The notes beneath the pieces were generated by a model. It made no database searches. It was not told the DNA's origin and was given only the letters and a program-made list of their open reading frames with translations. The position numbers and the translations under genes are program-made. A stretch of 63,959 nucleotides of DNA, the filler included, from Nemertoderma westbladi (taxonomy: Eukaryota > Animalia > Xenacoelomorpha), in NCBI GenBank assembly GCA_032718475.1. It is 3 parts of 3 records of this genome, joined end to end, with 100 filler letters (N's around TTAATTAATTAA, not from the genome) between each part and the next. Parts side by side here need not be neighbours in the genome. Positions count along the whole stretch, not along the records: positions 21,152 to 44,773 come from JAUCBJ010001233.1; 2 more parts are not named here. One strand, given 5' to 3'. The number at the start of each line of letters is the position of its first letter. The first letter of the stretch is position 1. Positions 1 through 52,891 of this stretch are shown here, piece after piece.

Positions 1-536
1 AGTCAGGATGTATGATCAGTTAGCAGTCCGCAGTAGTCGTTGGGGCCGCAGATCAGTTAAAGGATATATGCCCTTTATAATTAAACCTACTAGTGTACGA
101 CTAAAAAACAGTAAAGCACAAAATACTTCCAAGCCGTTCTTTCTTAGGCTCAGGACTGAATGTAAACACTGCACATAGGCATTGCGTCATTTCTCGGAAA
201 TTTTCTGTACAAGGAGCCACAAAAACGCTCTAATTGGCTGACTGAACTGAGAGACGCCGTAGAACAAAGGAAATCAACAGGTATGAATGTCAGCTGTTAA
301 CCGTAGTCATAGTAACTACTGTTCAAGAGTAGCTATCACCCCCTTTGCGTCACGAATTGCCATAGAATCATAAAATATGCCTTTCACAGTACACATACGG
401 AGGAAATAGGTCTTAGATCCTCTAAAAACACCGATACAGCAATAATACGGTCTCTTACACTTATTAAATCAACTACAGAGTATTTTACTGTAAAAGATAA
501 TAAAAATAACGGGGCAATTCAGCAAAGGCTTTTACA
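1..536 (-). mobile_element. Partial LTR of the BEL/Pao family seen elsewhere in the window (cut by the window edge)
   Basis: Ends in AAAGGCTTTTACA (536), like the other LTRs (AAAAGCTTTTACA at 25661, 34503, 54072). 52-150 closely matches LTR C 53615-53710 (TCAGTTAAAGGATATATG...AAGCCGTTCTTTC). Confidence 0.75.
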
Positions 537-3800: not shown

Positions 3801-3862
3801 TTAGTATAAACAACCAACTACAGTGGTGAAAATGTTGGGCATAATATAATATATGTAGAAGT

Positions 3863-21151: not shown

Positions 21152-22318
21152 TTCCTCTATCCTTCTTTTCTTTATTTGTTCTTCTCGGACTCTAGTGAGG
21201 CGGAGTTTTTCATCACATTCAGCTTGGTTTGCAGCTAACATTTCGGCATCGATTGAGTCCAACACAAGCTTGGTTCCTTCACTATTAGGGGAAAGTCCAG
21301 ACAGCCGTCTCCTCAACTCTTCGTCTCCTAGGAATCGCTGATAGTCGGACAAATAAATGTCGATAGCGTCTCTAGTTCGCGGTTCCTCGGCGGCCTCTTC
21401 GCTTTTCGCTTGAGAAAGGGTGACATCAGTTGGTTCTTCATAGGTTGATCTCTCAGCCAGCTGGGATTTCCACTGGGCCGTTTCCTGGACTTTGAGATCT
21501 ACCCGATGTAACCAAGTTTTGACAGCAACCTGCAGCGACGTGTCTTGTCTTCTTTTGGAAGTTTCCTCAAAGGCTGAGAGGATTAGTCGTATGCGTAGGG
21601 TTCTTTCGCGTATTTGATATAGTAACTCTTCCTGCTCTTGAGGTCCGTGAGGTTGTCGAAACAGTTGTTCTTCCAATCGATCCAAGGATCCGAAGAATCC
21701 CTGCACATATCCTGCTGCCGACCTCTTCCAAACAGCTGGATCCATTGTATCTTTAGCCACTCCCATCCTGTGTATATCTTCCCAAGTAGCCTCAGACAGA
21801 TCCAACGGGAGTCCGAGTCCGGGAAAGTTCCATTGTGATTCAACAATAGATATCAATTCTTCCCTGGCGTATCCCGCGTAATTGTCTTGGGTCGCTCGCT
21901 TATTCCTCGCCCAGTCGGCTTGATGTTCTTCAACCGCAATGAATATAGTAGTTAGCACTACAGCAGGAAGGGTAAGAAGGGGGTCCGAGTAGACTGTAGC
22001 AGCCATCTGCACTCCGCCTTCGGGGGTCAGCTCTACAGTATCCGAACTGCTGGAGCTATCGGATCGCTGGGAAGTAGGTTCTTGACCAAGATGTTGCTGC
22101 GATAGGACAACTGCCTCTTGGTCCCGTTTTACCTGTGCCCGAGTGCCTATGATGGACCTATGGTGGACTAGCCTAGGGTCTGATACTACTGGAGGGATGA
22201 CCTTTTTTACAGTAGGAGGTGAGCCGAACTCCTTTCTTATTCGCTCCACACTCCTATCTGAATCACAAATAGTTGTATCGATCAGACTGTCTGACAGGTT
22301 TTGCTGAGTGTCAGACAT
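21152..22318 (-). CDS. BEL gag-pol N-terminal region, truncated by the gap
   Basis: MSDTQQNLSDS... is homologous to the first ~390 aa of the 1913-aa ORF. Confidence 0.85.
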
Positions 22319-23639
22319 GTTTAGTTATACAGTTGAATATCTACTACTATATTTTCAGTTAAAGCAAGTCTAGTAATTCAGTATGACCGCAAGCCTAGCG
22401 ATTTATTACCGGTACCGTTACTCAGTGTAACGTGATATATATACAATATATTAGAATACCGGTATGCTTATAATATATAAGTATTATTATAGACTAGATT
22501 TGTCACAGAGTACCGGTATGTAATTTAGCACAAATATATATATATATATAGTAGGCCTATAGTGAATACCGGTATACAGCTTACACTTATAGTATATAAG
22601 TATAATTATGAACTAGAATTAATTACAGAGTACCGGTATGATTTCAGCTCAAATTTATAGAGATAAATATAATAAGCCTATAGTGAGTACCGGTATGTCA
22701 ATTATTTTTAGAATAATTGAATTCCTGAATATTTTAAGGTTACTTAGCTACTTTAACTTACTTTATTACCGTTATTTAAGTAGTAGTCCAACTGGTAGTA
22801 AGACCTAGTTGTTGTATGACAAGCCTACTATTTATAAATCGTTTGATTTGATTTATAATATTTATATACCCGTTTAAATGGGTTTTTTGTCAATATTTGA
22901 AATAAATGTTATTATTTCTGGGGGAGTCACTACACAGAAGCTGTGCGCTCTCAGTGAAGTGCTATTTATTTGACACTAAAACTGATAATTCTAATTTACC
23001 TAAGTTACTTAATACTACAAATTACTTACGATATGGGTGAGATTAATTCTCTAATTAAACACAACAAAATATTACGTACGAAATTTTTAGGGTAATTTTA
23101 CAGGAAGTCTACAAACCAGCCTAACAAAGGGTTAGAATTCTGGTTATTACAACGGACAGGGTACTACGGTATTTGAAATAATAAGTAGTAGTAAATATAT
23201 TGTACTGTCCAGATAGGAAAATACCACCGCCTGACGACCTATAACCGTATCGCTATAGGTACTACGTTATGTATCACGGATTGTTCCTACCCAGAAGCTA
23301 ATAGAGCTAACGAATGTGCCTATCAACCACTTTACAACACAAATATACTGCCTACACTAATTACTTCGGAAAGCACTGTACACTAAACCCTAAATTAGGT
23401 ACAAGTACCGGTATAACAAATAATCAGTAGTTAAATATACTTGAACAGTTAAAAGAACCACGGCATCTGCTGGAGTGACCGAAGCACAAAATCTCCAGTC
23501 TTTACCTACGCCGAGCAGCCCTGATGTAGTACCGGGGTTAGTTTAACTATAACGGTATGTATAACAAGCACAATTACTGTAGGAATAAACTTGGGGACAT
23601 GAATGTTGCGAATAATCGCATAAACTCTGAATAATAAAT

Positions 23640-24200
23640 ATTACGCTACCCGTACAGAATACTCAAACAAATACAAACCAAACGCTGGCAAACTACTATC
23701 AAGCCTAAACAAACTACAGTATGTGCAGATTCTGAAACTGTTAGTTAGTATGCGTTCTAACACGGTAGTACGACTTACTCTTTAAGAGGGGATTGACCTT
23801 ACAGCTTATGGCTGCCCCAACTTACTAACGGCACTTTATCAGACCAACTCTACACACGCAGCAATCCCTTCAGACCTAAAAATAGCTAGACAACAATCCA
23901 GCCTACAAAATATTTGAGTAATAACTATTACGGTACCTGAACAGACCACACAAACAAACACAGGCTAAAACACTGGCAGACTACGATCAAGCCTAAATAA
24001 ACTACAGTATATGCAGATTCTGAAACTGTTAGTTAGTATGCGTTCTAACACGGTAGTACGACTTATTCTTTAAGAGGGGATTGACCTTCAGCATATGGCT
24101 GCCCCAACTTACTAACGGCACTTTATCAGACCAACTCTACACACACCGTAATCTCTCCAAACTCAACAACAGTCAGACAGCAGCTCAGCCTACAATTATC
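23640..24200 (-). repeat. Tandem ~290-bp duplication in the BEL leader (copy 1)
   Basis: CAAGCCTAAA..GCAGATTCTGAAACTGTTAGTTAG..CTCTACACAC occurs twice; same arrangement at ~51955-52520. Confidence 0.85.
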
Positions 24201-24467
24201 TGAACAATCTGAGCAGGGTCACACGCCTTCTGCTCAATATTAGCCTACTAGTAAATAAAACTGACAGAAATAGACCTAAGTAAAATCCCAATAAAAACCA
24301 GGCGTCCCCGATTTAATATCGAGACCTACCGGTATACAATAATCAAAATCGAATAATACTAAATGTATTTGTACAGCAGTACCGGTTAGGACAGTTGGGC
24401 CTACAGACCTACAGAAATACCGGTTACTACGGTATTTTGCAACCTTATTGCCTACTGCAATAAGATC

Positions 24468-24478
24468 ATAACTGTTAC
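24468..24478 (-). promoter_or_regulatory. Non-tRNA primer-binding site (GTAACAGTTAT), complementary to LTR segment 25218-25228
   Basis: Abuts the 5' LTR; no TGG; 11/11 complementarity to its own LTR. Confidence 0.7.
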
Positions 24479-25661
24479 TGTTCGCGCTTTTGAAGACCTT
24501 TAGCAGTTTAACCTGCCAAAATTTATATGTCTTTTAGTTAATTAACACACCTTTAGCATACGACAATATTTTATGCTAATAAACAAAACATTAGCCGAAG
24601 CCAGCCCATGCGCGATCATTCACCCGATGGATCTACACCCGGGAGGCTGAATTCGGATGCTTAGATTTTATTATTGCAGTGTAAGGTTGCAGTGTAAGCC
24701 TACTGTATTATTCGATTGATCGCTAATATGTAATTTCTGACAGATATTATTAACTTTCGGGAAATATTAACAGTTCCTTTAGGACGTGGCGCTCTATCTA
24801 TTTAAACAGAGCTAGGACTTATACTAAACGCAACGATAAGGCTTATGATTAAAGTATAAGTCGCATTCTTTAGGAAATGCTTTGTTACCAGTCACATCAC
24901 ACTCACAATCATGCACACTATTCTGCCGACCGTCAGTATATTTGATCACACATAAAGAGAACAGCAATTGACTCAGGTAGTGTCTACTAAATAACATTAG
25001 ATTCAATACACACCACATTGATATAAATCGCAATTGTTATATATAGCCTGTCTCTCTAACCTGTAGTGTATCAAGAAATTGGGAAATTTGGGTGATTTAT
25101 CAATATTCTCCAAATGACAATATTTCATCAACAAATCGATACAATTAATAACTGACGGTAAATAGCAGTACAAACAATATGATTAGTGCAGTTAAATTAA
25201 GTGAGGTAACACCGCCGGTAACAGTTATACTTTCTATAATCTAAGCAGTTTTACTAGAGTTGTTCCAAAAGCCGGTGTTATGGCGAAAAATGGGAACACA
25301 ATAACAGAAACATGTGACTACTACCACTATACGAGTATACCAAAAACCCTTATTCCACGAAGCCCCGTTCAACACAGAGGATGAGTATAGAGATAGGAAA
25401 TTCAGTTCAGTAGCGCTGGGATAGGTCGAAATCAACGCCTACGCAAATTCTATTGGCCGACACGAACAGCAAGGCTAAGGCAACCTCTCTAAGCTAGTTG
25501 GCCGATTAAACTGAGCCCAGATATCTCCGTACAGCACATCAGCCAATAAGCTGGTAGCTTGCACTATTTTAGTTATAAATCCCTTTGAGAGTATTCTAGC
25601 GACTGGGGGGGAACTGGCCAGCAAAGGCAAACGTATCAGTTATCCCACAAAAGCTTTTACA
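24479..25661 (-). repeat. LTR A (5' LTR of copy 1), 1183 bp
   Basis: TGTTCGCGC...CTTTTACA termini shared with LTR B and LTR C. Confidence 0.9.
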
Positions 25662-28632: not shown

Positions 28633-28787
28633 CTCCGCCTTGTTCCTCTACTATGCTCTTGGCGAGTTCGTATATACCATGGAAGTATTCGACAGTACTC
28701 TCTACCTCGTCAATATACACCGTATCATCTCCATTCACGTCCCAGTCCTCAAACACGTGATAATCTGGATCCCGTGCGTAACATGTT
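28633..28787 (-). CDS. Putative exon 2 of a secreted EF-hand protein gene
   Basis: Branch/acceptor CTAATTCGTAG| and donor GGAG|GTGAGT. Encodes EF-hand-like FEDWDVNGDDTVYIDEV. Phase 2 matches exon 1. Confidence 0.6.
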
Positions 28788-29050
28788 CTACGAATTAGTA
28801 ACAATAACGATTAAAGTGATAATCTGGATCCCGTGCGTAACATGTTCTACGAATTAGTAACAATAACGATTAACGTGATAATCTGGATCCCGTGCGTAAC
28901 ATGTTCTACGAATTAGTAACAATAACGATTAACGTGATAATCTGGATCCCGTGCGTAACATGTTCTACGAATTAGTAACAATAACGATTAACGTGATAAT
29001 CTGGATCCCGTGCGTAACATGTTCTACGAATTAGTAACAATAACGATTAA
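28756..29050. repeat. 5 x 59-bp near-perfect tandem repeat
   Basis: Unit CGTGATAATCTGGATCCCGTGCGTAACATGTTCTACGAATTAGTAACAATAACGATTAA; no spacers. Confidence 0.95.
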
Positions 29051-29483: not shown

Positions 29484-29514
29484 GTAGCACTGTTTGGGCA
29501 CATAGCTTTAAAGC

Positions 29515-33357: not shown

Positions 33358-34503
33358 TGTTCGCGCTTTCAGACCTTTAGCAGTTTAACCTGCCAATTTT
33401 AGGTGTCCTCTTGTTTATAAATCGACTTTAGCCTATAACAATTATTTAATGCACATGAAGTAACATTAGCCGAAGCCAGTCTATGCGCGATCATTCACCC
33501 ACAGTTAAGGGAGACTGGATTCGGATGCTTTGACCTTATTGCGTTGCAGACCTACTGTATTATTCGATTGATCGTTACTATATAATCTCTGACAATATTA
33601 TTCACTTTCGGGGAAATATTAACAGTTCCTTTAGGACGTGGCGCTTTAAGTATAAAACAGAGTTATGACTTATACTAAACACAACGAGATGGCTACTGAT
33701 TTTCGTAAATATCGCATTCTTTAGGAGATGCTTTATTATCTGTCACACTGCTGCATACGACTTCACACTGCTGCACACTGATCTGCCGACCGTCACTGAA
33801 TTTAACCATATATAAGGAGGATAGCAACTGACACATGTAGGGATTATGAAATAGCATTTAATGCACACTAAAACCACTATAATGTAAGTCGCAGTTGCTA
33901 CCGGTAAACCTGTTCCTCTAACCTTTAGTAATCAAGAAGATTTTTATGATTATTCATCGGTATTCTCCAAATATATCAGCAATATACACCAACATATAAC
34001 AATTAATAACCGACAGTAAAATAATGCAGTTTTATTATACAGCAATGTTTAAGGTCAGATGTGTGACCGTAGTTTGGTTTGATAATAGATTTACGTTCTT
34101 GTAATCAAAGCCGTCTAATGTTGGCCAAAGTCTGAAACTTCTAACACAGAAGTACAGAAGAATTTCCAAGCAGTTGTTCTCGCTCAGAAAGGTAAACAAA
34201 GACCGTAATGCATTGCGCGGTTTTCTGTAGGCCTCTTTGCAAGATAAAATGAAAAGCGCTCTGATTGGCTGAGCGAGCTGAACAAAGAAGTTCCACATCG
34301 ACAGTAAATCAGCTGACAGATTTCGTCATCTGAACTACAATCTATTTAGAGTATTAGCGCATTGTGGCATAAAATGGCTTGTTATGTCCGCTAAAACACC
34401 TTCACGGTACATTGCGGAGAAAATGGCTTGTTATGTCCGCTAAAACACCTACACAGTATATTGCGGAGAAAAATGACCTGTTATATCCGCAAAAGCTTTT
34501 ACA
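33358..34503 (-). repeat. LTR B (3' LTR of copy 2), 1146 bp
   Basis: TGTTCGCGC...CTTTTACA; three ~50-bp AAAATGGCTTGTTATGTCCGC repeats near the U3 start. Confidence 0.9.
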
Positions 34504-34581
34504 CCGCTCTCAGAAAATGGGATTTAATTTTATAAAATATTAAAACTCACAGTTTCTAAAATATAAAAATACTCTAAACAG

Positions 34582-35875
34582 TTAGTCTTTCTTACGCGAA
34601 CGGCGTTTACGCAGTTTTTTGAGGCTAGCAAGAGTCCTTTTCTCTTTGGGGCGAGCCACTTTACTAGGAGGGCTATAACTCCTGGGTGAAGGGTGCAATA
34701 CAATTGCATCGGAAGGTTTAGGATTACGGTCGGTGTATCTGCCGGTCGAGGTACCCGGTTGATCGATATCAACCTCAGTGGAGCGAGGTCGAACAACCTT
34801 CAGAGCGCGTTTCAGTACAGCAGCTCTTACTGGTCCCTGACGATTCGTCTGCACAAGAGCGGTAGGTGGACCATGTGTAGTGAGAAATTTCCTCGGTTTG
34901 ATGGTTCTTTCCAACTCGCGTTCTCGGGCTCTATCGGAATCGATATGCTTCTCCTCGAGCTGATTTTCCTCCGCTTATCGTTGGAAGCATTCGTGCTAAA
35001 CTCTTGCAGAGAGTAGGGTCGTCCAAGTTCGATATCCTCTTAGAGATTCTGGATTTCCCGATCGAACTGGGGTAAGGCCAATTCCTTTACCGCTAGGACT
35101 TGCTGCTGCAATTTACGTTTCTCTAAACAATTGTAGGTTCCTTTTCTGATCTTTTGTCGAATAGTGTCTAACGCGTTTCGTTCAACTCTCTCCTCCACCT
35201 CGGTGACAGGTTGTATCGGGGTTAGATCGGGACGATTATACGGGTTGAACGGCGATATTAGGTGTCCGCGTCCCAATCCAGCTAGGTAGGATGAGCGAAT
35301 ATCTAGGGAGCTCACAACCGGAGTGCCACCGACTAATTGTTTGGGTAACACTAGATCTTTGAACAGTGAGTACAGTTCGGGAGGATCCGTGATACTATTA
35401 GGATCAAGAGTCTGAGGTCTCACTAGGGAGTGAGGAGGCCTGACTGAGTATTCCGGAACTCTGATCATAGGTTTATTTAAGGATCGTTTGAGTCGAGCGA
35501 GCGTAGGTGATACGTCGAACAAGTTTCGCTCGAAACTCCCGTAAATATAGCGAGTAAAACTGTGTTTAGCGCAATGTCTCCACGGACGTTTGTCTTTCCG
35601 TGTGTTGGTTGGGTCTAGGGCATTCATCGTAATAATACCAAAGACGCTCGTCTTGTAGGGGAAACGCGGGTGATCTTTCTCCAGTTTTACAATGCCTCTC
35701 TCAAGAATTCCAAATATACATTGAAGTCACTGCGTTTATCCGGTTCTTTAACGTCTTCTCTTTCGAGTTGGTTTCGAATAGAATTTTCGTGTTCAATTCT
35801 CAGTTTGTCGTTCCGACTCCGCTGGGTATGATATTTAAATAGGATCATTTCCCTTTCGGTGTCTACATCGTCCAT
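34582..35875 (-). pseudogene. Degraded extra ORF between pol and the 3' LTR
   Basis: Three consecutive same-strand ORF pieces (62, 195 and 110 aa) in GC-richer sequence; ends in basic KKLRKRRSRKKD. Confidence 0.5.
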
Positions 35876-37624
35876 ATCGTGTAAATCGATAGGATGGCTA
35901 TATGAGTTTATCGATATTATAATTAATTATAATTTAGGCTAGCGGTCGTTGCTGCCTACCCCTCAATGCCCCCGGACAGCGCAAGCTCCTCAGCGCTGAT
36001 GTACTGTCGCCGCTGTGTCTATCGCCAACATAGTAGCTACACAACGACAACAACAACCAGCGCGAGTCACTCCACTGTCCGTCCCAAGGGCTTAGATTTA
36101 CTTCAGGTTCTTACTGCAGAGGTAGGGCTACTTTCACAACTGCGACTCGCTACTGTAAACACACTTTAGTAGTAACATTCACCTATAAACGCACAAATTC
36201 CACACAACTGTCACAAATTGTACACATTCGGGCCATTTGTCCATTAGTCAAGTGCCTTCCAGAATGCCACGTTATTATTATGTATCCCTGGATACTAGCA
36301 GTGCGCTATTTATTCCGTATGCTATTCAATGGGGCAAGCTTTTTATTGTTCTTTTAACTCACTTCTAATTCTAGCGTGGTTGTTGCCATGGTGACATTAT
36401 GGAAAGCTAGCAGTAGAATTAGGGTAATTCTCATGCATACAGATCTGGGATGCTATTTAATAGTAATTCTTTAATTGTCAATACTCCCCCTCACACACGA
36501 TTTTATGAATTTTATCGGCTATTGACCACACACCGGAGACTCTCGCACACTAATACACTTAATAGGGTGAATCTCCGCTCCCATGATCTATTAATTAATG
36601 GAATTTTGGGAATATTATAAATCGTACAAAATAACAATCCATCAAATTCATGAGAAGATATGAATTTAAATTTATTCCCGTAAATTTTATTATTTAATAT
36701 TAAATAGGCACAATTTTATTCCAGAGCATGTCTGGGGACTGGGATCCTTGATTCTAGGAAATTTGTCCTTTTAAGAGTATCGGTAAGTACTACGATATCT
36801 TAATCGACTAGAATTTTTAAAGGATCTAAATTTTAACAGATTTTGATTTATATATTTTCTTGGTTTACAAACTCCTTAGAGTTTATTTGTATGCATTTAC
36901 TCTATTATAACATTTGTTTTAATAGATTTTTATAAATATTAACTATGTAATATTTAAGATGGGCACCAATTTATTCCAGAACATGTCTGGGGACGGTAAC
37001 CATTGATTCTAGAATTTTGTCTTTCAAGTATATCGGTGGGTGCCGCAATATCTTAATCGACTAGAATTACAGATCGTCAAAGGGTTTAACAGATTTATTT
37101 TGCGTTGTATGCTACTGTTAAAGGGACATCACACTACTATATGTATTATTTAATATACGGTATGAGAGCAATATTGCAAGAAGCAATGTCAGTGAGAAGA
37201 GGCAAGTCGTTTCCAAGGTCTACCCAGAGCTTGGTTTAGCCGAGACACGAGGATCTGAACTTTTTGCATTCCTAATACTCTACTTACCAATAATACTTGA
37301 GTATAGTAGGAGCTTTATTGTACTTTAATAAGTACGGATATTTCATCTTACTGTAGTCACGCATTTATAATATGATACGGACAGTAAGGAAAGAGAATAA
37401 AGAGTTATTTCTCGCCGTTCCACTAAATATATAATATAAGTAATTAAGTAATAAACACGAGTATATATTGCACTAATCTACTAAATAATCGCTAAAATAA
37501 CATTCTACTAAATAAAATTAAAGAAAACAATTATTATAAAATTACATAATAATACATACCTAAATATAAAAATAATAAAAAACGAATATAAAATAATATG
37601 GTCACACACCCACTCCAGACACTG

Positions 37625-40600
37625 TTACGTTGGGGAGTCCCTAGATGTTTGTTGGATTAGGGAGGTGGTCGTGGGAAGAGTATCTTGCCTTCCATAGTTT
37701 CCGGACAGTTCTCTGTCTCTTTCCAGTAAACATAAACGACCAACTGGGTGATTGAGCTGCTGTGTTTCGAACACAATTCCAGGTTTCTTAAAGTTACGTC
37801 GCATGACGACGAGTTCTACCGATCGCACTAAACCATCATCGGAGATATAAGTCTCGATGATACGACCTGTCTGCCACCGCTTCGTGGAAGATCTGATTCC
37901 ACAATAAGGACCATGTCTCCGGCGCTGACGTTTTCTTGCTGCGCAAACCACTTGGTTCGAAGTTGTAGCGTAGGCAGATAATGTTTTTCGAAATGGTCAG
38001 CGAAACGATGGGATAATAACTGCATAAGTTGCCAAGTTTGTCGGCAGTATTCGTCTCTGTCCGTGATTTCCGAACGTGGGAGCATGGCTACAGGTTTCTT
38101 CAGTAGGAAGTGCGCGGGTGTTAGCGCTTCCAGGGAGTCGGGACTCGATGAGACTGGCATAAGCGGTCTCTCGTTGAAATAGGCGGCGATTTCTTCCATT
38201 AACGACCGCAAAAGTTCGTCGGTGAGATACGCGTGGCACGGCACTATAAAGTAAAATGTGGTCTTCACGCTTCTTATTAATCTCTCCCAACTTCCTTCCC
38301 ACCAAGGGGCATCGGCGGCGTTGAAGGTCCAGCTAGATGCTGTTACCCTTAGCTGATCGTCCACCTGTCTTTGGTTCCAATCTCTAACGTAAGCCTTGAT
38401 CTCATTATTGGCGCCAATGAAGTTCGTTCCCTTATCAGATCTCATCGTGTTGCTAGTTCCAAAGCGAGCGATCTGTCGGCGTAAACTCAGTATGAAGCTG
38501 TTGGTAGATAGATCGTTCACCATATCTAGATGGATCGCTCTACAAGTCATACAGACAAAGATGACACACCATCGCTTGACTATAGTCCTAGCACGATATA
38601 CTTCAATAGGGCCAAATAAATCCATACCGGTATTAGTAAAGGGTGGTTCATAGAAGCTAATTCGTTCCCTAGGTAATTCTGCCTCTCGCTGTGTTAAAGG
38701 CCTACTGAATGCTTTCCTACAGGGTATATAGTTCCTAAGAACTTGGTTCAGAGCTCTACGGGGTTTATGAAAATAATAGCGAGTTCGAATTTCGCTAAGA
38801 ACTCGTTCTCTACCAGCATGGTAAAGCTTACTGTGAACATCTACAATCATCTTGATTTGTATTTCAAGATTTCTAATGAGTATGGGAAACTTAGTGTCAA
38901 AGGATAATGGAGCATTAGTTAGTCTCCCTCCAACACGTATTAACCCATCTATCATTGTGCTAGAGAAATGATCCCTTAAGCGCATCTGTGGATTTCTCAA
39001 CAACAGGAAATACTTATCGGAATCTTCATAGCATTGCAGGAGTTTCAGTATCTGCTTATTGGTTTCTTCATGCTTCTGGTAACTGATCTTCTCCGTCAGA
39101 AACCTATCTGATATTTTATATTTGGGAAGATCTTTAATAGCATGGACCTGCGCAGATGTCAGTGGAGCGGTATCACTAGCGATCTTCGTCCTGGAGTAGT
39201 GATGATGAAAGCATCGCTTTAAATACATGACGGCCTTACAAAGCCGATTCCAGGAGCTATAGTGATTTATCGCTCTCTGCAGGAGAGGTGATATTCCCTG
39301 CGAGACGTCTGGTGTTCCAGATTTCCAGTCTCTCTCTCTGATTTCCACAACAGACTTATTTGTGGCGGGGGAGTTTAGATCCACAGCGTCGTCCCCGGAA
39401 ATGTGTAGTACAGACAGATCTATCACGGGTTTAAATAACTTTGATTTACTCTTCCGGGTTTTAGGTTTGACTTTCTCCGCTCCCTTGGCTTGTCTAATCT
39501 CAGCCGTGGTAAGATGAGGAGGCCATTCATCTTCTTCTTTACTTAGGAAGTCGGGTCCACCTAACCAGTCCGGAGTATCTATCAGTTCTTGAGGAGTTGC
39601 TCCTCTGGAGGCGATGTCGGCTGGATTAATCATCCCAGGGCAATGTCTCCATTGATCTACACTAGTGCGACTAAGTATAATGGCTACTCTGTTGGTAACG
39701 AAGACGCTGAACTGACAGACTTCATTGGTTATATACTCCAAAACGAGTAAAGCATCAGTCCAATAGACAGTTTTCTCCAGTTGATAGTCGATCTGTTCTG
39801 TGACATTCCGGCCGATGGCTGTAGCATATAGAGCTGCCTTTAACTCCGCTCGAGGAACTCGTAGCTTGTTGTTTATCAAGGCCTTAGAGGTAACCAAGGC
39901 AACTTTAATTCCATCCGGAGTTTCAACTCTCAGGTAGGCTACTATACCTATTCCCATATCGCTGGCATCTACAAACACGTGGAGTTGATAGGAATACGTG
40001 GGGAGAACGTGACCAAAATATGAACGGGAAATTGTAAAGTTCTCGATGGATGGTAGAGAATCTTCCCATTTCATCCACTTCTTTAGTAGTTCTCCCTTAA
40101 GTGGATCGTCCCACGAGTGGTTTTCAAGCCACATTTGTTGAACTAAACTCCGAGCAACCAATATAACTGGGCTAATAAATCCCAATGGATCGAAATAAGT
40201 GCCCAGGATACTTAGACAAATCCATTTAGTTCGAACTGGATTATCTCGCTGTTTTAACTGGAAAAACAGGATGTCTCTCTCCGTGTCCCATTTCAAACCA
40301 AGCGTCTTGGTTTCTGGAAGATCGTCCTTGATTAGGTCCAGGTCTTTAACTCCTCGGTCTTCTACCGGGATCGATTCCAGAAACTCACGGGAGTTACTTG
40401 TGAATTTAGTTAGTCGACATCCACCTCGTTTCAAGCACTCTACCATTCCCTTGGCAACATCAATGGCTTCTTCCACCGATGGGAGGGACTTTAAATTATC
40501 GTCCATGTATATATCCCGTTTGATGTTGTCGATAACCGCTTTAGAGAAGGCGTCTCGGTTGTCATCAGCAGTGGTGCGCACTACTGAACAGGCGTTCGAG

Positions 40601-41079
40601 GGGCTCGAGATGATCCCGAAAGCCTGGATGGTCATCCAGTACTCCACCGGTTTTTGATTGAGGTCTCCTTCAGGCCAACACAGAAATCGTAGGCTGTCTC
40701 GATCCCTATCCAGCGCCTTAACTTGTAAGAACATGCCTTCTATATCCGAGGCGAAGGCGATCGAATATTGCCGTAATCTTAAGAGTATTCCCAACAAGGA
40801 TTGGAGTAAGTTGGGTCCCGGCAACAACTCAGAGTTAAGGGATTGGCCCATGTAAAGGGCGGAGCCGTCAAATACTACCCGAACTTCGTTGGGTTTACCG
40901 GGTTTGGGAACGTAATGATGTGTTAGATAATACGTTCTCTCAGTTATGGGTGTTTCTTCCGGTACTCGCTCCGCATATCCCTTATCGATGAATTTCTTCA
41001 GCTGGGTCTTGTACATCTCTTTAGCTGAAGCATTTGCCGTAAGGCGCTGATGTAGTTGCGCGATTCTCTTCTCCGCCAA
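37625..41079 (-). CDS. BEL pol: RT, Pao RNase H (peptidase A17-like) and integrase; C-terminal frameshift near 37870
   Basis: VRVVFDGS, ASDIEGMFLQ, IYMDD, LHVFVDAS, PRAELKAA, TGMDLFGP, SDKGTNF, WERLIRSVK. Confidence 0.93.
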
Positions 41080-41082
41080 AGG

Positions 41083-42850
41083 TCAGTTATTTATAAAGTT
41101 GGGTTCTCGCCTTCGGAATGGCAGACCAATCTCATACCTCCCTTGATCTCTAAGGAAACATGTAGTCGTTTCCTGGATCTGCTTGGCTCTTTCCTCCTCG
41201 ACCGATAGTGCTTTGTCGTAGGAATTAGGCTCTACAGCTTCTTGAGTAAAGAATCGTACGGCGTGTTTGTCACGAATCTTAGCGTTGTGTCGAACTATCA
41301 CCTCATTTAGCTCGTCGTTGTAGTCGAGTTGTCCGCCATGATGGATGAGATGGCAAAGGTGCACTTGGTTTCTCCAAGCTTCACTTTCAGTGAGGAGGTC
41401 GATTGTATTTTCCTCGTCAAACAATTGGGTAATATCGTCATTATCTGAGGAGTATGGTGTTCCCTCAGGTGTGATTTCTCCCTCACTGATTTCTTCTTCC
41501 CATTCACTCACCTGATGTATTTGTTCAGTGGGTAATCTTTCCATGAGCGTTCTACGGGAAGGTCCAGTGAAGTACCAACCTACTCTAGTTCTTCCCGCAT
41601 AGGTTTGCAATGGTTGCGGTCGAGCAGGTCGTTTCTCTAATGTCTCAAGCGCCTCATGCGCATTTTGGCCGATCAATATTTGCACCCCTGGGTAGTCGGT
41701 ATTGAATCTAGGGATATTATGTTGCTGGGTAAAATCGTCCTCATCCCAGTTGTAAGGTTCTACTTGGCTGGTAGCAAAGTTCTTTATCGCCACCATTTTT
41801 ACTGACCTTATGCTGTGTTCTCCTAGTTCGTCTTGGGGAGTGGACAACGCACCTACATAGTAGTCTGTAGCTACTGTAGATTTCCAAACCTGCATAATTC
41901 CTGAAAGGTTCAACTTAGTTTGGAACTTGGGTTGTCCAGCAAAGATGTCTTCGGCTAGTTCTTTGTCGATGAATGTTCCTGTGCTGCCGGAGTCCAGGAG
42001 GGCGTTGACTATAAAACTCTTACCTAATCCGTGGACTCTTAGCTGAACTACGGGGAATTCCCGGATTCCGACGTTGGAAGTTGGCGCTTTCCAAGATGGT
42101 TGTCTGTCAGGAATAACCGGGTGCGCTTCGTTATCGGTTTCAGTCTCATACGTAAGCGCTCGATACACCGTGGTGTTTATCAGATAACAGGATTCGTTTT
42201 CGTCGGAGAATTCGTCCGTGTAAAATTCTTCCATCTCAGAGCTGTGGTCAGTGTCATTCACATCACTGAATTGGACATGTAGTTCGGACTCACTTACCTG
42301 ACTCGGGCTGTTTCTTTCAAATTCGGTGTGCAGCAAGATATGATGTTTCACGCCGCACTTAGCACACCTCGCGTCGGAGTGACAGGTTCGCCGTTGGTGT
42401 CCTTGTCTGAGACAATTATAACACAACCGCTTATCCCACATGACTTCGCGTCTATCCTTTAAGGATTTCTTTAAGAATTCATCACACACACTTAAACGAT
42501 GGGGCCCGTCGCACAATGCACATTTTGGTTTGATGTTACTTACTTTACCTTGGGTAGTGTTGTGCACCCTCGTTCTTTCCTCGGGCTTTCTTCCATGAAT
42601 TCTCTTAGGAGACGTAGGAGGAGTTTTTGTTACCTGTTCTCTCCTGTCACTGGTTTGAGACTTAAATTTACTTACGTCTTTAGGTGCTTTGTTGACATAG
42701 TAAGATCTTTCGGTGTCTTTTCCGCTGTTCTCCTCTTGAGAGGTTTGGCCTTCGCCGTCGTCTGTATAACACACTGGTGTTACCTTTCTCCTAGAAACGG
42801 GTTTTTCACTCACCTTATTTTCCGGTGTCTTCTCTCGGGACTGCTTTAAG
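41083..42850 (-). pseudogene. BEL gag zinc knuckles and aspartic protease (copy 2); premature TGA before RT
   Basis: CALCDGPHRLSVC, CYNCLRQGHQRRTC, CAKCGVKHHILLH, ALLDSGS. FINN*PLAEK here versus FINNRPLAEK in copy 3. Confidence 0.9.
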
Positions 42851-42932
42851 GAGCTGTAATTTTACCTCTCCATTTAAGAATGACATGAGATCAGCCATGG
42901 TAGGGTCTCTTTGTTGTTGTTCCATCATATAT

Positions 42933-43412
42933 TACTACTACTACTACTAGGATCGGCATGCTGCATTGCAGCTGCATTTTTAAGAATGCTGTGCCGGCTT
43001 GTCAACAAAATTGCACCGCCACAACTCCCTATCACCCATGACATTTGCTAGATCATCCGCATCTTTAAGGCCAGTGTCCTTTAAGATGCGTCTCAAGAAA
43101 GTCATGGGCTGTCCACCATGCTTATTCACTCCATGAGGCTGCCAAAGTACAAGATTATGCACTGGCTGGTCCTCACGGCGAAAGCAATGTCCTGCAAAGC
43201 GGAGGCGAATTTGTTCTAGTGTCAAGCTTGGGGGAACCAATGAGACACCTCCAATGTTATATAGTGTCTGGTTGGAGATGTATGCATTGTACTTGACACA
43301 ATGAACCCGGCGTAGCATTCTTGTGAATGTGCCATCCAGAGATTTGGTGTCCTCAGCAGTTAGAGCCCAGCATGGACTCCCGTAGAGGAGTACTGGAACT
43401 ACTGCTGCTCTA
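42933..43412 (-). mobile_element. 5'-truncated RTE LINE inserted in BEL gag
   Basis: VVPVLLYGSPCW..RMLRRV..RLRFAGHCFR is an RTE RT C-terminus; (TAG)n tail; 11-bp TSD CCATCATATAT at 42922-42932 and 43413-43423. Confidence 0.92.
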
Positions 43413-44773
43413 CCATCATATATAGAACTCTTTTGTCCCAATGAGTACCCACTCCACCTAGCTCAGATGCTACAGCTCCAATAACCATAGAACTCTGATA
43501 TTCATGAGACTTACCTAGCCAATCTAATTGCCTACAGATCTCCTGGATCTCATCAGAAAATTCTATAATCCCGCAGCTAAGAAACTTTCGGGGCGCTACC
43601 AATTTCGCATACAAATACCTAGCTATGTTAGTCCTATTACCATACCTGATGTTTAGTGTATCCCAAACTTGTCTTAATCCATCTGGATGTCCAATAAACT
43701 TTAACGCCATTAACTTGGGAGATCCTTCCAAGCACTCGATGAGGAATCTAAGTTTCTCTCCGTTAGATAGCACAGAGTTCTGTATGTTATCTTTATAATA
43801 TTCATTAAAAGGTAACCATTTCATCTCATCTCCGTTGAACTTGACGATCTCTCCCACTTTTACCGCTTGACGGGCTTCGGTTCTAGCCATTTGACGCGTA
43901 AAACTTTCTTGGGCCATCGTATTATTTAATATCGAGTTATCGGTATATAAATTTCTCGGATTATGATCAGGTCTATATGGAATATCATTATCAACAGGTT
44001 TGTAATTACCCTTAATAGGGTTTACTATAGGAGTTTCTACTTCACTAGCAGTATAGATGCATGTAGGCTCCACACCTTGCGCATGAAATACTTCAGACCT
44101 AACAGGTTGACACATTGTTACAGGGGGTGGTGGTATACCCCTTTGTATATTTACTAGTTTATCGCGTTCTAAAGCGATACTCTGCTGCACTTCTTGCAGT
44201 TCTAACCTACCCTCTCTTAATGTTCCCTTTAACTGCTGCACAGTCCCTTCCATTTCTTGGAACTGCTGGGAGGAACGTAATCGATTTTCCTCCAATTGTC
44301 CGAGCAGGAGATCCATTCCCCGCCATTGCTCATCCACCCCCTCAACCGCCGAAGCGGGAGCCGCCAACATAGTAGCAGGTAGACGAGGGACGACGGGCGA
44401 TAAATCATTGATCTTTCGCTCGGCGTCCAGGACTGGGACAGGACTTCAGGGGCCATTCTACTGGGCATAGGTAGTTTAGTACTGTGCAAAGGGAATTTAG
44501 AGTTAGGTTCTGGAAGTACAGGGGGTCTCTATCACAGAGGGAGTGGCTTCGAGAACAGGCCTAATTATTTCAGGCTCATCTACTATAGTAGGGAGTCTTT
44601 CTACTCTAATAATTTGGTCTGTGGGTTCTGTACTACCTAAGTCTACATTAACTAGTTGCCTTCTCACAGCTGGGGGCAAATTAGGCAATTTCTGATGGTG
44701 GGGCGTTCTTCTACGTCTGCTGGAACGAGATCTATTTCCTCCACCTTCAGGATCTGTTGTATCGCCTTCATCA
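43413..44773 (-). pseudogene. BEL gag central region (DUF1759-like), frameshifted
   Basis: KFNGDEMKWLPF..EKLRFLIECLEG..LNIRYG; collinear with the copy 3 ORF. Confidence 0.85.
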
Positions 44774-44890: not shown

Positions 44891-47800
44891 TTATAAAATC
44901 CTCGATCGCTGGCAGGCTTCCCATTTCATCCACTTCTTTAATAATTCTCCCTTAAGTGGATCGTCCCATGAGTGGTTTTCAAGCCACATTTGTTGTACCA
45001 AACTTCGAGCAATCAATATAACTGGGCTAATAAATCCCAATGGATCGAAATAAGTGCTCAGTATACTTAAGCAAATCCGTTTGGTTCGAACAGGATTATC
45101 TTGCTGTTTTAGTTGGAAAAACAGGATATCTCTCTCTGTGTCCCATTTCAAGCCGAGTGTCTTGGTTTCTGGCAGATCATCTTTGATCAAATCGAGATCT
45201 TTCGCCCCTCGATCTTCCGCAGGGATCGACTCCAGAAACTCACGGGAGTTGCTGGTGAATTTGGTTAATCGAAATCCACCTCTTTTTAAGCACTCTACCG
45301 TTCCCTTAGCGACCTCAATGGCTTCCTCAACTGATGGGAGGGACTTCAGATTGTCGTCCATATATATGTCTCTCTTGATGTTGTCGATCACTTCCTTAGA
45401 GAAGGCCTCTCTGTTGTCCTCTGCAGTAGTACGCACTACCGAACAGGCGTTGGAAGGGCTTGAGATTATCCCAAAGGCCTGGATGGTCATCCAGTACTCC
45501 ACCGGTTTCTGGTTGAGGTCTCCTTCGGGCCACCATAGAAATCGTAGGCTATCTCGATCCCTATCCAACACATTGATTTGCAAGAACATGCCTTCTATAT
45601 CGGAGGCGAAAGCAATCGAATATTGTCTCAATCTTAAAAGAATTCCCAACAAAGATTGAAGCAAGTTGGGTCCGGGTAACAATTCAGAGTTAAGGGATTG
45701 ACCCATGTAAAGAGCGGAGCCATCAAACACTACTCTCACTTCATTTGGTTTACCGGGTTTAGGAACGTAATGGTGAGTTAAATAATACGTTCTTTCAGTC
45801 ACAGGTGTTTCTTCCGGTACCCTCTCCGCGTATCCCTTATTAATAAATTTTTCCAGCTGCGTTTGATACATTGCTTTCGCTGAAGAATTAGCCGTAAGGC
45901 GTCGATGGAGTTGCGCGATTCTTTTTTCCGCCAGGGGTCTATTATTGATGAACTTCGGTTCTCTCTTGCGAAAAGGTAAACCGACTTCGTATCTTCCTTG
46001 ATCTTTGAGGAAACGCGTAGTTGTCTCTTGGATCTGCTTGGCCCTTTCCTCTTCCACTGACAAAGCTTTATCGTAGGAATTGGGCTCTACCGCCTCTTGC
46101 GTAAAGAATCGTACAGCATGTTCATCTCGAGTCTTGGCATTACAACGCTCAATGACGTCATTTAACTCGTCGTTATAAGCTTCTCGTTCAGAGGGATAGA
46201 GAAGTTGACATAAGTTAACTTGGTTTTGCCAAGCCTCGTTTTCCTTAAGGAGATCGATGGTATTCTCCTCATCAAAAAGCTGGTGAACATCGTCGTTATC
46301 TGAGGAGTATGGAATTCCCTCAGTTGAATCGTCTCCCTCACTAGCATCATCTTCCCATTCACTCACCTGGCAGACTCTCTCTTGCGGTAGTCTTTCTCTG
46401 AGTGTTCTACGGGAAGGGCCAGTAAAGTACCAACCTACTCTAGTTCTTACCGCATAGGTCTGTAGGGGCTGCGGTTGAGCAGGCCGTTTCTCTAATGTCT
46501 CCAGCGCCTCACGCGCGTTTTGGCCGATGAGTATTTGCACTCCAGGATAATCAGTCTGGAATCGAGGTATGTTAAGATGTTGGATGCTCTCATCCTCGTC
46601 CCAATCATAAAGGTCTGCTTGAGTAGTAGCGAAGTTCTTTATAGCCACCATTTTCACTGACCTTATGCTGTGTTCTCCTAATTCGTCCTGGGGGGTGGAC
46701 AACGCTCCGACATAATAATCAGCTGTTATTGTAGATTTCCAAACTTGCATAATGCCTGACATGTTGAGCTTAGTTTGGAACTTGGGTTGTCCAGCAAATA
46801 TATTTTCGGCTAGCTCTTTATCGATGAATGTTCCTGTGCTGCCGGAGTCCAGGAGGGCGTTCACTATATAACTCCGTTTAGGTCCGTGCACCCTTACCTG
46901 CACCACAGGAAACTCTCGGATCCCTACATTGGAAGATGGCTCTTTCCAAGATGGTTGTCGTTCAGAAGTAGTTAGAGTAAAGTCGTTCTCTGTATCTTTT
47001 TCATATGTGAGTGCTCGATACACTGCGGTATTTATCATGTAACAGGATTCGTTTTCGTCGGAGAACTCGTCTGTATAGAATCCTTCCATCTCAGATTGAT
47101 CAGTGTCGTTCACATCACTGAATTGGACATGTAGCTCGGAATCACTTACCTGATTCGGACTATTTCGATCGAATTCAGCGTGCAACAAGGTATGATGTTT
47201 CGCACCACACTTTGCACACCTTATGTCAGAGAAACAGGTTCGTCGTTGGTGTCCTTGTCTGAGGCAATTATAACATAACCGCTTATCCCACATGACTTCG
47301 CGTCTCTCTGTTAATGATTTCTTTAGAAATTCATCACACCTATTCAAATGGTGGGTCCCGTCGCACAGCGCACATTTTGGTTTGATGTTACTTACCTTGT
47401 TTTGAGTCACATTGTGTACACTTGCCCTTTCTTCGGGTTTTCTCACCTGAATTCTCTTGGGAGACGTGGGAGGAGTTTTTCTTACCTGTTCCCTCCTGTC
47501 ATTTGTTCGAGACTTAAATTTACTTACCTGATCTTTAGGCATTTTATTCACGTAATAAGATCTATCCGTGTCCTTCCCGCTATCTTCTCCTTGAGAAGTC
47601 TGGCTTTCGCCGTCATCGGTATAACATACTGGTGTTACCTTTCTCCTAGATACGGGTTTTTCACCTACCTTGTTTTCCGGTGTTTTCTCTCTGGACTGCT
47701 TGAGGAGTTGTAATTTCACTTCTCCATCTAGGAATGACATGAGATCAGCCATGGTAGGGTCTCGCCGTTGTTGTTCCATCATATATAACACTTTCTTATC

Positions 47801-50632
47801 CCAGCGTGTACCTACTCCACCTTTCGGTAAAGTAGAAGCCACTGCTCTAATAACCATAGTGTTCTGATACTCATGAGACTTACCTAGCCAATCCAATTGT
47901 CTGCAGATCTCCTGGATCTCATCGGAAAACTCGATAATTCCGCTACTAATAAACTTTCGGGGCGCTACTAACTTTGCATACAAGTACCCAGCGATGTTAT
48001 TCCTATTACCATACCTGATGTTTAGTGTATCCCAAACTTGTCTTAATCCGTCTGGATGTCCAATAAACTTTAACGCCATTAACTTGGGAGATCCTTCCAA
48101 GCACTCGATGAGGTATCTAAGTTTTTCTCCATTAGATAGTACAGAGTTCTGTATGTTATCTTTGTAATATTCATTAAAAGGTAACCATTTCATCTCATCT
48201 CCATTGAACTTGACGATCTCTCCAACCTTTACCGCTTGCCGGGCTTCGGTTCTAGCCATTTGACGCGTAAAACTTTCTTGGGCCATCGTGCTATTTAATA
48301 TCGAGTTATCGGTATATAAATTTCTCGGATTATGATCCGGTCTATAGGGAATATCACTATCAACAGGTCTATAATTACCCTTAATAGGGTTCACTATAGG
48401 AGTTTCTACTTCGCTAGCAGTATAGATGCGTGTAGGCTCCACACCTTCCGCATGAGATACTTCAGACCTAACGGGTTGACACATTGTTACAGAGGGTGGT
48501 GGTATACCCTTTTTTAAGTTTACTAATTTATCGCGTTCTAACGCGATACTTTGCTGCACTTCTTGCAACTCTAACTTACTTTCCCTCACCGTTCCTTTTA
48601 AATGTTGGACAGTCCCTTCCAACTCTCGGACCTGTTGGGAAGAGCGTATCCGATTCTCCTTCATCTCTCCTAGGAGAATATCCATCCCCCGCCGTCTCTC
48701 GTCTACCCAATCAACCACCGAAACGGGATCCGCCAACGTCGTAGCGGGCAGACGAGGGACAACGGGCGACAAATTTGGAATATTTCGCTCGGGGTCCAGG
48801 ATCTGAACTGTCTCCTGGGCAGTTCTACGGGGCACAGGTAGCTTAGTGCTATGCAGAGGGAATTTATAGGTAGCTTCAGGGAGCACAGGTGTATCTATTA
48901 CCGAAGGGGTGATTTCAAGAACAGGCCTAATTATTTCAGGCTCATCTACTATAGTAGGGAGTCTTTCTATTTTAATTATTTGGTCTGTGGGCTCTGTACT
49001 ACCTAAGTTGGTATTATTTAGTTGCCTTCTAACAGCTGGAGGCAAATCAGGCAATTTCTGACGGTGGAATGTTCTTTTACGTCTGCTTAGACGAGATCTA
49101 TTTCCTTTGCCTTCAGTATCGGTGGTATCGCCTTCCTCCGATGATGTATATCCCTGTCTTTTGGGAGTAGATCGATCCATCATCTGCATATTGCTAGCCG
49201 TTAACTGTTTATTTATGCAGTCTTGATTCTCCTGAATGTTTTCCAATTCTAACTGGGTGGTTTCTTCAGTCGCTCTCCGTTCTGCTTCTGCCACTGCCTC
49301 TGCCGCCTTTCTTTCAGCTGCTGCTTCTGCCAAGGTCGCCTTTGCTTCTGCCGCTGCCTCTGCCGCCTTTGCCTCAGCCGCTGCCGCTTTTGCCTCTGCT
49401 GCTGCCTCTGCCGCTGCCACTTTTCTTTCTGCTTCTGCAGCTACCACTGCTGCTTTCTTTCTGTCTTCTATACATTTTTTCTTTACTTGTTCTTCTTGGA
49501 CTCGTGTCAGGCGGAGTTGTTCATCAAATTTAGCCTGATTCGCAGCCCTCATTTCCACATCGATGGCATCCAACACAAGCTTGGTTCCTTCGCTATTAGG
49601 GCTAAGTCCCTCTAACCTTCTCCTCAACTCGTCATCACCTAAAAAACGCTGATAGTCTGACAGATAGATGTCAATGGCATCCCTCTTATGTGGTTTCTCT
49701 GCCGTCGCTTCACTTTCCACTTGGGAAAAAGTGGCGTCTGTTGATTCTCCATGGGTTGATCGCTCCTCCAGCTGAGCTTTCCACTGAGCTGTTCCTTGAA
49801 CTTGGAGATTCGCCCTTTGAAACCAAGTCTTTACGGCAACTTGCAACGACGTGTCTTGTCTTCTTTTAGAAGCCTCCTCAAAGGCGGATAAGATTAGCCT
49901 AATTCGCAGAACTCTTTCTCTAACTTGATAAAGCAGCTGTCCCTGCTCTTGAGGTCCTTGAGGTTGTTTAAACAGTTGTCTTTCTACTCGCTCCATAGAG
50001 CTGAAGAATCCCTGTGCGTATCCGGCTGCGGACCTCTTCCATACAGCTGGATCGATGGTTTCCTTGGCTACTCCCATCCGGTGTATGTCTTCCCAGGCAG
50101 CTTCTGATAAATCAAACGGGAGTCCGGGTCCGGGGAAGTTCCATTGCGACTCGACAATAGACTTCAGTTCTTCACTCGTGTATCCCGCGTAACTATCTCT
50201 AGTTGACCGTTGACTTCTTGCCCAATCGATCTGGTGTTCTTCCACCGCGATCAATAACCCAGCGAGCACGGCTGCAGGAAGGATGAGAAGGGGATCCGTA
50301 TAAACTGCATCCGTCATCTCTGCTCCGCGCTCGGGTGTCAGCTCTACAGTATCCTCACTACTGGAGCTGCTGGGCCGCTGAGGAATAAATTCTTGACTAG
50401 CGGGTTGTTGCTGTTCCGCTGCTTGTTGGTCCCGCTTGACCTGAGCTCGGGTGCCTATGATAGACCTACGATGTTGGACTAGCCTAGGTTCTGTTATTAC
50501 TACTGGAGGGATGACCTTCCTCACAGTGGGAGGTGAACTGAATTTACGACCAGACTGTTGTACGTCTCTATCTGAGTCGCAGATAGTTACATCTAATATA
50601 CTGTCTGACAGGTTCTGCTTAGTATCAGACAT
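44891..50632 (-). CDS. BEL gag-pol polyprotein (long N-terminal extension, DUF1759-like gag, zinc knuckles, protease, RT, start of RNase H)
   Basis: Uninterrupted ORF with ALLDSGS, VRVVFDGS, IYMDD and FDPLGFISP. Confidence 0.95.
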   Translation of the reverse strand: MSDTKQNLSDSILDVTICDSDRDVQQSGRKFSSPPTVRKVIPPVVITEPRLVQHRRSIIGTRAQVKRDQQAAEQQQPASQEFIPQRPSSSSSEDTVELTPERGAEMTDAVYTDPLLILPAAVLAGLLIAVEEHQIDWARSQRSTRDSYAGYTSEELKSIVESQWNFPGPGLPFDLSEAAWEDIHRMGVAKETIDPAVWKRSAAGYAQGFFSSMERVERQLFKQPQGPQEQGQLLYQVRERVLRIRLILSAFEEASKRRQDTSLQVAVKTWFQRANLQVQGTAQWKAQLEERSTHGESTDATFSQVESEATAEKPHKRDAIDIYLSDYQRFLGDDELRRRLEGLSPNSEGTKLVLDAIDVEMRAANQAKFDEQLRLTRVQEEQVKKKCIEDRKKAAVVAAEAERKVAAAEAAAEAKAAAAEAKAAEAAAEAKATLAEAAAERKAAEAVAEAERRATEETTQLELENIQENQDCINKQLTASNMQMMDRSTPKRQGYTSSEEGDTTDTEGKGNRSRLSRRKRTFHRQKLPDLPPAVRRQLNNTNLGSTEPTDQIIKIERLPTIVDEPEIIRPVLEITPSVIDTPVLPEATYKFPLHSTKLPVPRRTAQETVQILDPERNIPNLSPVVPRLPATTLADPVSVVDWVDERRRGMDILLGEMKENRIRSSQQVRELEGTVQHLKGTVRESKLELQEVQQSIALERDKLVNLKKGIPPPSVTMCQPVRSEVSHAEGVEPTRIYTASEVETPIVNPIKGNYRPVDSDIPYRPDHNPRNLYTDNSILNSTMAQESFTRQMARTEARQAVKVGEIVKFNGDEMKWLPFNEYYKDNIQNSVLSNGEKLRYLIECLEGSPKLMALKFIGHPDGLRQVWDTLNIRYGNRNNIAGYLYAKLVAPRKFISSGIIEFSDEIQEICRQLDWLGKSHEYQNTMVIRAVASTLPKGGVGTRWDKKVLYMMEQQRRDPTMADLMSFLDGEVKLQLLKQSREKTPENKVGEKPVSRRKVTPVCYTDDGESQTSQGEDSGKDTDRSYYVNKMPKDQVSKFKSRTNDRREQVRKTPPTSPKRIQVRKPEERASVHNVTQNKVSNIKPKCALCDGTHHLNRCDEFLKKSLTERREVMWDKRLCYNCLRQGHQRRTCFSDIRCAKCGAKHHTLLHAEFDRNSPNQVSDSELHVQFSDVNDTDQSEMEGFYTDEFSDENESCYMINTAVYRALTYEKDTENDFTLTTSERQPSWKEPSSNVGIREFPVVQVRVHGPKRSYIVNALLDSGSTGTFIDKELAENIFAGQPKFQTKLNMSGIMQVWKSTITADYYVGALSTPQDELGEHSIRSVKMVAIKNFATTQADLYDWDEDESIQHLNIPRFQTDYPGVQILIGQNAREALETLEKRPAQPQPLQTYAVRTRVGWYFTGPSRRTLRERLPQERVCQVSEWEDDASEGDDSTEGIPYSSDNDDVHQLFDEENTIDLLKENEAWQNQVNLCQLLYPSEREAYNDELNDVIERCNAKTRDEHAVRFFTQEAVEPNSYDKALSVEEERAKQIQETTTRFLKDQGRYEVGLPFRKREPKFINNRPLAEKRIAQLHRRLTANSSAKAMYQTQLEKFINKGYAERVPEETPVTERTYYLTHHYVPKPGKPNEVRVVFDGSALYMGQSLNSELLPGPNLLQSLLGILLRLRQYSIAFASDIEGMFLQINVLDRDRDSLRFLWWPEGDLNQKPVEYWMTIQAFGIISSPSNACSVVRTTAEDNREAFSKEVIDNIKRDIYMDDNLKSLPSVEEAIEVAKGTVECLKRGGFRLTKFTSNSREFLESIPAEDRGAKDLDLIKDDLPETKTLGLKWDTERDILFFQLKQQDNPVRTKRICLSILSTYFDPLGFISPVILIARSLVQQMWLENHSWDDPLKGELLKKWMKWEACQRSRIL

Positions 50633-52879: not shown

Positions 52880-52891
52880 TATATCCTTTAA
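52880..52891 (-). promoter_or_regulatory. Non-tRNA primer-binding site (TTAAAGGATATA), complementary to LTR segment 53620-53631
   Basis: Abuts the 5' LTR; no TGG; 12/12 complementarity to its own LTR. Confidence 0.72.

Follow-up and report, generated by a model that had tools for sequence, protein, structure and literature searches.

Retrotransposons of the BEL/Pao superfamily are generally described as tRNA-primed, as an earlier note on this DNA stated, and the ICTV profile agrees: it gives them a host tRNA primer and an 18-nt primer-binding site (PBS), with a replication that is poorly understood (PMC8742986). The window considered here, a stretch of 63,959 nucleotides of DNA from Nemertoderma westbladi in three joined parts, holds BEL/Pao elements in which no tRNA-type site follows the 5' LTR, and the question is what primes their minus-strand DNA. 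On sequence grounds we hold with considerable confidence that the element's own LTR RNA serves as the primer in this family, instead of a host tRNA.

The elements in the window

The LTRs and the parts of the elements described below all lie on the minus strand. LTR a, the 5' LTR of element A (24479..25661, 1183 nt), begins with TG and ends with CA, and its ends are common to three copies, the start TGTAAAAGCTTT and the end GCGCGAACA being shared by LTRs a, b and c of the window. LTR b, the 5' LTR of element B (52892..54072, 1181 nt), is about 80% identical to LTR a. LTR c, the 3' LTR of element C (33358..34503, 1146 nt), sits inside a Copia-like RT remnant and its PBS falls outside the window, and a partial LTR d (1..536) is cut by the window start. 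Elements A, B and C are themselves each cut by an N run or a window edge.

LTR a is followed by a leader of 2160 nt (22319..24478), which contains a 288-bp tandem duplication (23628-24195), and then by the start of a Gag ORF (21152..22318) that is cut by the N run at 21052-21151, where the pol of element A is lost. This Gag fragment gave no match in a Pfam search; it is 74% identical to the Gag of element B (286 identities, 102 mismatches). The Gag-protease-RT ORF of element B (44891..50665) has DUF1759, Peptidase_A17, Cys-His knuckles and LLDSGS and stops just before the N run at 44774-44873. The internal part of element C (34504..44772), with its 5' end lost at the N run, is an interrupted gag-pol that carries motifs of RT (YMDD), RNase H (the acidic motifs) and integrase (the core motifs), all in order, and the Pfam matches are Peptidase_A17, DUF5641, DUF1759 and a weak Integrase_H2C2. 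PF05380 is carried by all top database matches, and the closest database relatives are BEL proteins with 37-43% identity, the named ones being from corals, molluscs, echinoderms, tunicates and fishes. Judged by their proteins and the domain order PR-RT-RH-IN, elements A, B and C belong to the BEL/Pao family, and the assignment made in the earlier note is borne out by DUF1759, Peptidase_A17 and DUF5641 in B and C. As it has no 18-nt tRNA PBS, the element is filed here as BEL/Pao lineage and not as fitting the ICTV description. The candidate polypurine tract upstream of LTR c is only GAGAGCGG, weaker than the GGGGCCGG type of the relatives.

The gag of element C is interrupted by a 271-bp inverted copy, 100% identical, at 42938-43208 and 29217-29487, which by eye has a LINE-type RT-like frame and is read as a recent insertion. 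Between the pol and the 3' LTR of the same element lies a 228-aa ORF (35040-35726, minus strand) with no Pfam match, in the position of env-like or extra ORFs. Elsewhere in the window, a 4.6-kb element (727-5332) bounded by 147-nt terminal inverted repeats of 21-bp palindromic units holds a HECT-domain ORF (1861-3156, plus strand) and an integrase-core ORF (3863-4561, minus strand). A single ORF of 613 aa (13295-15136, plus strand) has a weak NADAR match below the cut-off. An apparently intronless host gene pair (56999-57874 and 58617-60035, plus strand) encodes a ubiquitin-like + UBA protein without database match and a LINES-family protein, and tandem arrays of 63-bp and 59-bp units are found at 29500-31400 and 28696-29110.

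Pairing between the LTR and the PBS

The earlier note had placed the 11-mer GTAACAGTTAT directly after the 5' LTR with no TGG, and a re-reading of the sequence agrees: this PBS of element A (24468..24478) adjoins the LTR end ...GCGCGAACA at 24479, and neither LTR a nor LTR b has a TGG in the 40 nt that follow it. The exact complement claimed for the same LTR is also present at 25218..25228. This candidate self-primer, ATAACTGTTAC, occupies LTR positions 434-444, a numbering that can be given because the three copies fix the start and end of the LTR. The duplex of element A has 11 Watson-Crick pairs plus one G-U, at offset 0. The PBS of element B, TTAAAGGATATA (52880..52891), directly after LTR b, forms 12 Watson-Crick pairs with its own candidate self-primer TATATCCTTTAA (53620..53631, LTR positions 442-453). 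In both elements the 3' end of the primer pairs with the first base after the LTR, which is the U5-edge geometry that had been claimed for A, and the distance from primer to PBS is about 730-740 nt. No tRNA or Rfam match was found in the whole window. For element A a spliced partner (cut at LTR 440-601, 10 nt) was considered and discarded, its donor being poor and none being present in B.

A match of this kind could be due to chance or to a non-functional inverted copy. For a single 11-mer the empirical rate in the window lends this some weight, as 254 of the 62,549 11-mers have their complement within the 1183 nt before them. Dinucleotide shuffles of LTR a produced the 11-mer complement of A in 24 of 20,000 cases (64 of 20,000 with offsets 0-5), and the 12-mer complement of B arose in 3 of 20,000 shuffles. 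Chance is highly improbable given two independent matches with different letters at a homologous LTR site and the recurrence of the pattern in 11 of 15 relatives lacking TGG, and it is already contradicted by the matched changes between A and B.

These changes affect four of the 11 pairs (1, 5, 6 and 8), each altered on both sides (G-C/T-A, C-G/A-T, A-T/G-C and T-A/A-T). The primers of A and B lie at the homologous place in the LTR, and pairing of the PBS of A with LTR b, or the reverse, reaches 5-6 nt at most. The LTR segment bearing the primer is 59% identical between A and B, compared with 88% upstream and 80% downstream; as this is the most diverged part of the LTR, pairing persists where drift is fastest. 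Elements A and B supply the only two complete primer-PBS pairs in the family, and LTR d carries the 12-mer of B at 68-57. On this comparison the primer-PBS pairing is real and under selection, the covariation being evidence of selection on pairing that says nothing on its purpose.

Further copies of the PBS come from run X1, which consists of assembled contigs only, is guessed to be RNA and contains this family. PBS position 1 is changed in three X1 contigs, a base is added after position 9 in one listed contig (a second reads likewise from a loose end) and one low-depth contig has further PBS changes; positions 2-9 are without a listed difference. Against LTR a, these variants would be left with 9-10 bp of pairing; no partner in an LTR of their own is readable on the same contig. 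The PBS for LTR c was predicted beforehand from position, and the 2-nt gap of LTR c is in none of the X1 contigs listed, which leaves the prediction unconfirmed. The expectation that complementarity would be kept across copies holds for element B, which pairs with its own LTR at the homologous site; the X1 PBS variants, not matched to a partner of their own, count against it.

The LTRs resemble mosaics (25661-25320, 54072-53730, 34503-34170 and 536-160), a and b being 88% identical in the upstream part and c and d 69%; LTR d is closer to c upstream, yet its primer region is that of b. The mosaics suggest recombination between subfamilies near the putative start site. Separately, the hexamer ATGTGT after the 3' LTR c (33352-33357, minus strand) complements LTR c positions 440-445 (34059-34064), which are near the primer place of A and B, and the flank after LTR c also reads as Copia RT in frame. 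Insertion of Tf1 guided by PBS microhomology has been described, and the ATGTGT match may be either chance or the mark of an insertion guided in this way.

Two hairpins of 8 bp flank the PBS, one in U5 near the LTR end (24499..24520, minus strand) and the other just past the PBS (24444..24464, minus strand). All pairs of both are standard in A and B, with three one-sided changes in the first and one two-sided and one one-sided change in the second; the shuffle control gave 241/500, with two sequences only. Lin and Levin (1998) reportedly dealt with a U5 stem-loop structure around the PBS, going by the title. The core duplex has an energy of -11.7 kcal/mol in A and -11.6 kcal/mol in B. When the whole RNA was folded, the duplex of A had a mean probability of 0.83-0.87 with one 3' boundary and of 0.00-0.01 with two others, and that of B reached 0.93-0.94 only if the RNA starts at most 10 nt from the primer. 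The modelled fold is thus boundary-sensitive, and in-cis folding is not robust.

Relatives, transcription start and mechanism

Distant relatives were taken from two sets. The first comprises 80 metagenome loci, of which 30 with a terminal repeat were inspected. In 11 of these, two copies define where the LTR ends; no LTR start was found in L052 and L080, where the sequence counted from the end of the ORF took its place. The second comprises 31 loci from a genome collection, of which 21 were checked and eight have a fixed end, L104 and L107 being dropped for unclear ends, and it was scored with the rule unchanged from the metagenome set. The 19 scored loci with a fixed LTR end have 30-42% protein identity. 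Four of them (L052, L098, L102 and L105) have a TGG site, which we take to be a match to a tRNA 3' end, and there pairing with the own LTR is limited to 4-6 nt at most. The strict self-pairing rule was passed by 11 of the 15 loci without TGG (at most 6 of 1000 leader shuffles) versus none of the four with it. Pairing runs across a GT...AG junction over 10-15 nt in nine loci (L008, L041, L054, L056, L062, L072, L080, L084 and L085) and is contiguous over 11 nt in two (L057 and L087). Four of the 15 failed: L058 and L092 have 10-11 nt of pairing under a relaxed acceptor rule, and L059 and L082 show one wobble or mismatch, by eye. L058 and L062 are one family. The sisters L084 and L085 differ in three PBS letters and, to match, in three letters of the exon.

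Ten loci with the LTR start only stand outside these counts; spliced matches occur in three (L024, L042 and L074, without a null), two are ambiguous or TGG-like (L025 and L027) and five show nothing convincing. A motif-free self-complement scan of all 80 metagenome loci was too noisy for use, an exact LTR motif search and protein alignment of viral contigs found nothing, and ARAGORN, applied to 33 of the 111 loci, gave two tRNA genes, a number too small for comparing tRNAs. The complete animal-type BEL elements L082-L107 come from contigs assigned to bacterial genomes assembled from metagenomes, for which contamination by host DNA is the simplest explanation.

Selection on pairing would also be expected of an RNA structure with another job, be it packaging, dimerisation or translation of the 2.1-kb leader, with priming left to a hairpin or a tRNA fragment. 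The two conserved hairpins flanking the PBS are consistent with this, and fungal GalEa elements, according to part of PMC5445492, have a conserved hairpin instead of a PBS. Against it, the duplex begins on the first post-LTR base in A and B and 0-4 nt after the LTR in the relatives. The pairing moreover replaces the TGG site and never accompanies one in any of the 19 scored loci, and priming by tRNA fragments would call for one fragment in A and another in B, each of which also happens to match the LTR of its element. This explanation is improbable. The tRNA-independent self-priming put forward in the earlier note, which we infer from sequence, gains from the A/B covariation (4/11 pairs) and from the split between TGG site and self-complement among the relatives.

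In a quick tree, which included no named BEL reference lineages, the window RTs stand on a long branch (2.14) apart from all relatives; the relatives therefore back a clade-wide pattern, not the N. westbladi family directly. The splice label is not clearly clustered on this tree (34 of 500 shuffles as low). The contiguous form could have come from a spliced ancestor via reverse transcription of a spliced 3' LTR.

The transcription start predicted at 25228 is doubtful. An initiator-like GTAGTC found by motif scan (25316..25321, minus strand) lies 93 nt upstream of the primer and is a candidate alternative start; the corresponding distance is 98 nt in LTR b and 91 nt in LTR d, and all three of these LTRs have CCAAT boxes at some distance upstream of the primer. 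In L041 and L008 a TATA motif precedes the splice donor by about 140 nt, which would put the start about 100 nt before the partner. Together these motifs suggest that the primer is internal, about 90-100 nt from the cap. As the partner spans an LTR intron in most relatives, the RNA does not have to begin with it. The motifs count against a narrower version of self-priming, the strict Tf1 mode, in which the RNA begins no more than a few bases from 25228 and its capped first 11 nt are the primer, and the unstable folding of A does likewise. That version can draw on a length of 11-12 and offset 0, as in Tf1 (PMC7175516, in the part available), and on L080, which fits a start at the partner; the modelled duplex of B, which forms only if the RNA starts 0-10 nt upstream, also favours a start at the primer. 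We consider the strict mode rather unlikely.

A strong pyrimidine tract followed by TAG, about 30 nt upstream of the primer in LTR b (53700-53650, minus strand) and LTR d (135-95, minus strand), has no obvious donor and might serve as an acceptor for splicing or trans-splicing. The most conserved LTR block, GCGCCACGTCCTAAAGGAACTGTTAATATT (24815-24765, with homologues in b and c), belongs to the R-U5 part, far from the primer.

A TATA-like run precedes the primer by about 10 nt in LTRs a, b and d; it would place the start just downstream of the primer and the primer in U3. This would suit another version of self-priming, in which the own-RNA primer acts in trans and is supplied by a second packaged RNA, the 3' LTR copy or a short LTR-only transcript. 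The loop of 730-740 nt is long and the fold in cis is not robust, and the relatives need spliced and unspliced LTR forms. A candidate polyadenylation signal AATAAA (24667..24672, minus strand; LTR position 990, and 1001 in b; motif scan) lies downstream of the primer in a and b, as does a poly(A) signal in six spliced relatives, so both RNA ends would carry the primer. The TATA-like run is missing from LTR c, however, and the sole tested precedent is priming in cis. A primer in trans is a tentative idea, towards which we do not lean.

In the self-priming that we prefer, the transcript would include LTR positions 434-444 and the duplex would form across about 730-740 nt, probably aided by Gag and the two flanking hairpins. 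The primer would perhaps be the internal one just described, not the first 11 nt as in Tf1. RNase H would cut at the 3' edge of the duplex and free a 3'-OH; the RNase H motifs of element C look intact, and cleavage is predicted. RT would extend the freed primer and copy U5-R, the primer stretch would be regained, once strand transfer has taken place, from its copy in the 3' LTR, and plus-strand synthesis would copy the primer back into the PBS. Because the primer would be copied into the PBS, both would change together in one round, which would explain the four clean double changes.

A wider reading, towards which we incline slightly, takes in the relatives. A large, mostly aquatic BEL/Pao branch would have dropped tRNA priming and would prime with internal LTR RNA, mostly formed only by splicing of an LTR intron. 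The N. westbladi family would be the intron-free, contiguous form, in which primer and PBS are rewritten in step, the PBS being a copy of the primer.

Comparison with known systems

In Tf1, an 11-nt PBS after the 5' LTR complements the element's own LTR and RNase H cuts between bases 11 and 12, according to the available portions of three papers (PMC7175516, PMC4600332 and PMC5341516), which confirm the self-priming via RNase H cleavage that the earlier note had cited as established. About half of the Tf1 cDNA keeps the PBS copied as single-stranded DNA (an excerpt of PMC11042837). Part of PMC6317226 names Tf1/sushi and Tcn1 (gypsy) as groups with reported self-priming and TAR (copia) as one with predicted self-priming. 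What is proposed here is a known mechanism that is new in a superfamily described as tRNA-primed. No self-priming BEL was found in the literature searched, which was mostly open-access and available in part, supplements and Repbase reports aside, and a prior mention is possible; no passage on PBS, priming or tRNA was found in the available parts of the BEL papers PMC3118150, PMC554778, PMC6238403 and PMC2774666, supplements aside.

If the proposal is true, each of the three LTR superfamilies has evolved self-priming, and the elements of animals include a whole branch that is independent of tRNA and would, we infer, escape host control via tRNA supply or tRNA fragments. Self-priming would also explain why PBS-based annotation would miss such elements, and it makes testable predictions: strong-stop DNA should bear a defined 5' RNA end, and the primer and the PBS should be inherited jointly. 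If the reading of the aquatic branch is true, self-priming has originated independently for a third time, and here for the first time in connection with splicing.

The N. westbladi elements resemble Tf1 and Tf2 of S. pombe, Tj1 of S. japonicus, the Tf1/sushi group and Tcn1 in that the PBS right after the LTR complements the own LTR and there is no tRNA site. They are not members of Tf1/sushi, which has Ty3/gypsy chromovirus proteins, as they carry BEL/Pao proteins. Unlike Tf1, they have an LTR of 1.18 kb, with about 730 nt from primer to PBS, the BEL/Pao primer may be internal, and most relatives build the partner across an intron. In the TAR lineage (Houba and Osr-1), self-priming was predicted by the same kind of test on sequence, which asks for 10 bp or more of complementarity at a site that begins 0-5 bp past the LTR (PMC6317226, in part), although TAR is plant Ty1/copia. 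The likeness to Belpaoviridae extends to LTRs of 0.2-1.2 kb with TG...CA, a Cys-His Gag, the order PR-RT-RH-IN and the Pao-specific Pfam families; the N. westbladi family departs from the description of that group in lacking a tRNA PBS, whereas four of its relatives do carry a TGG-type site.
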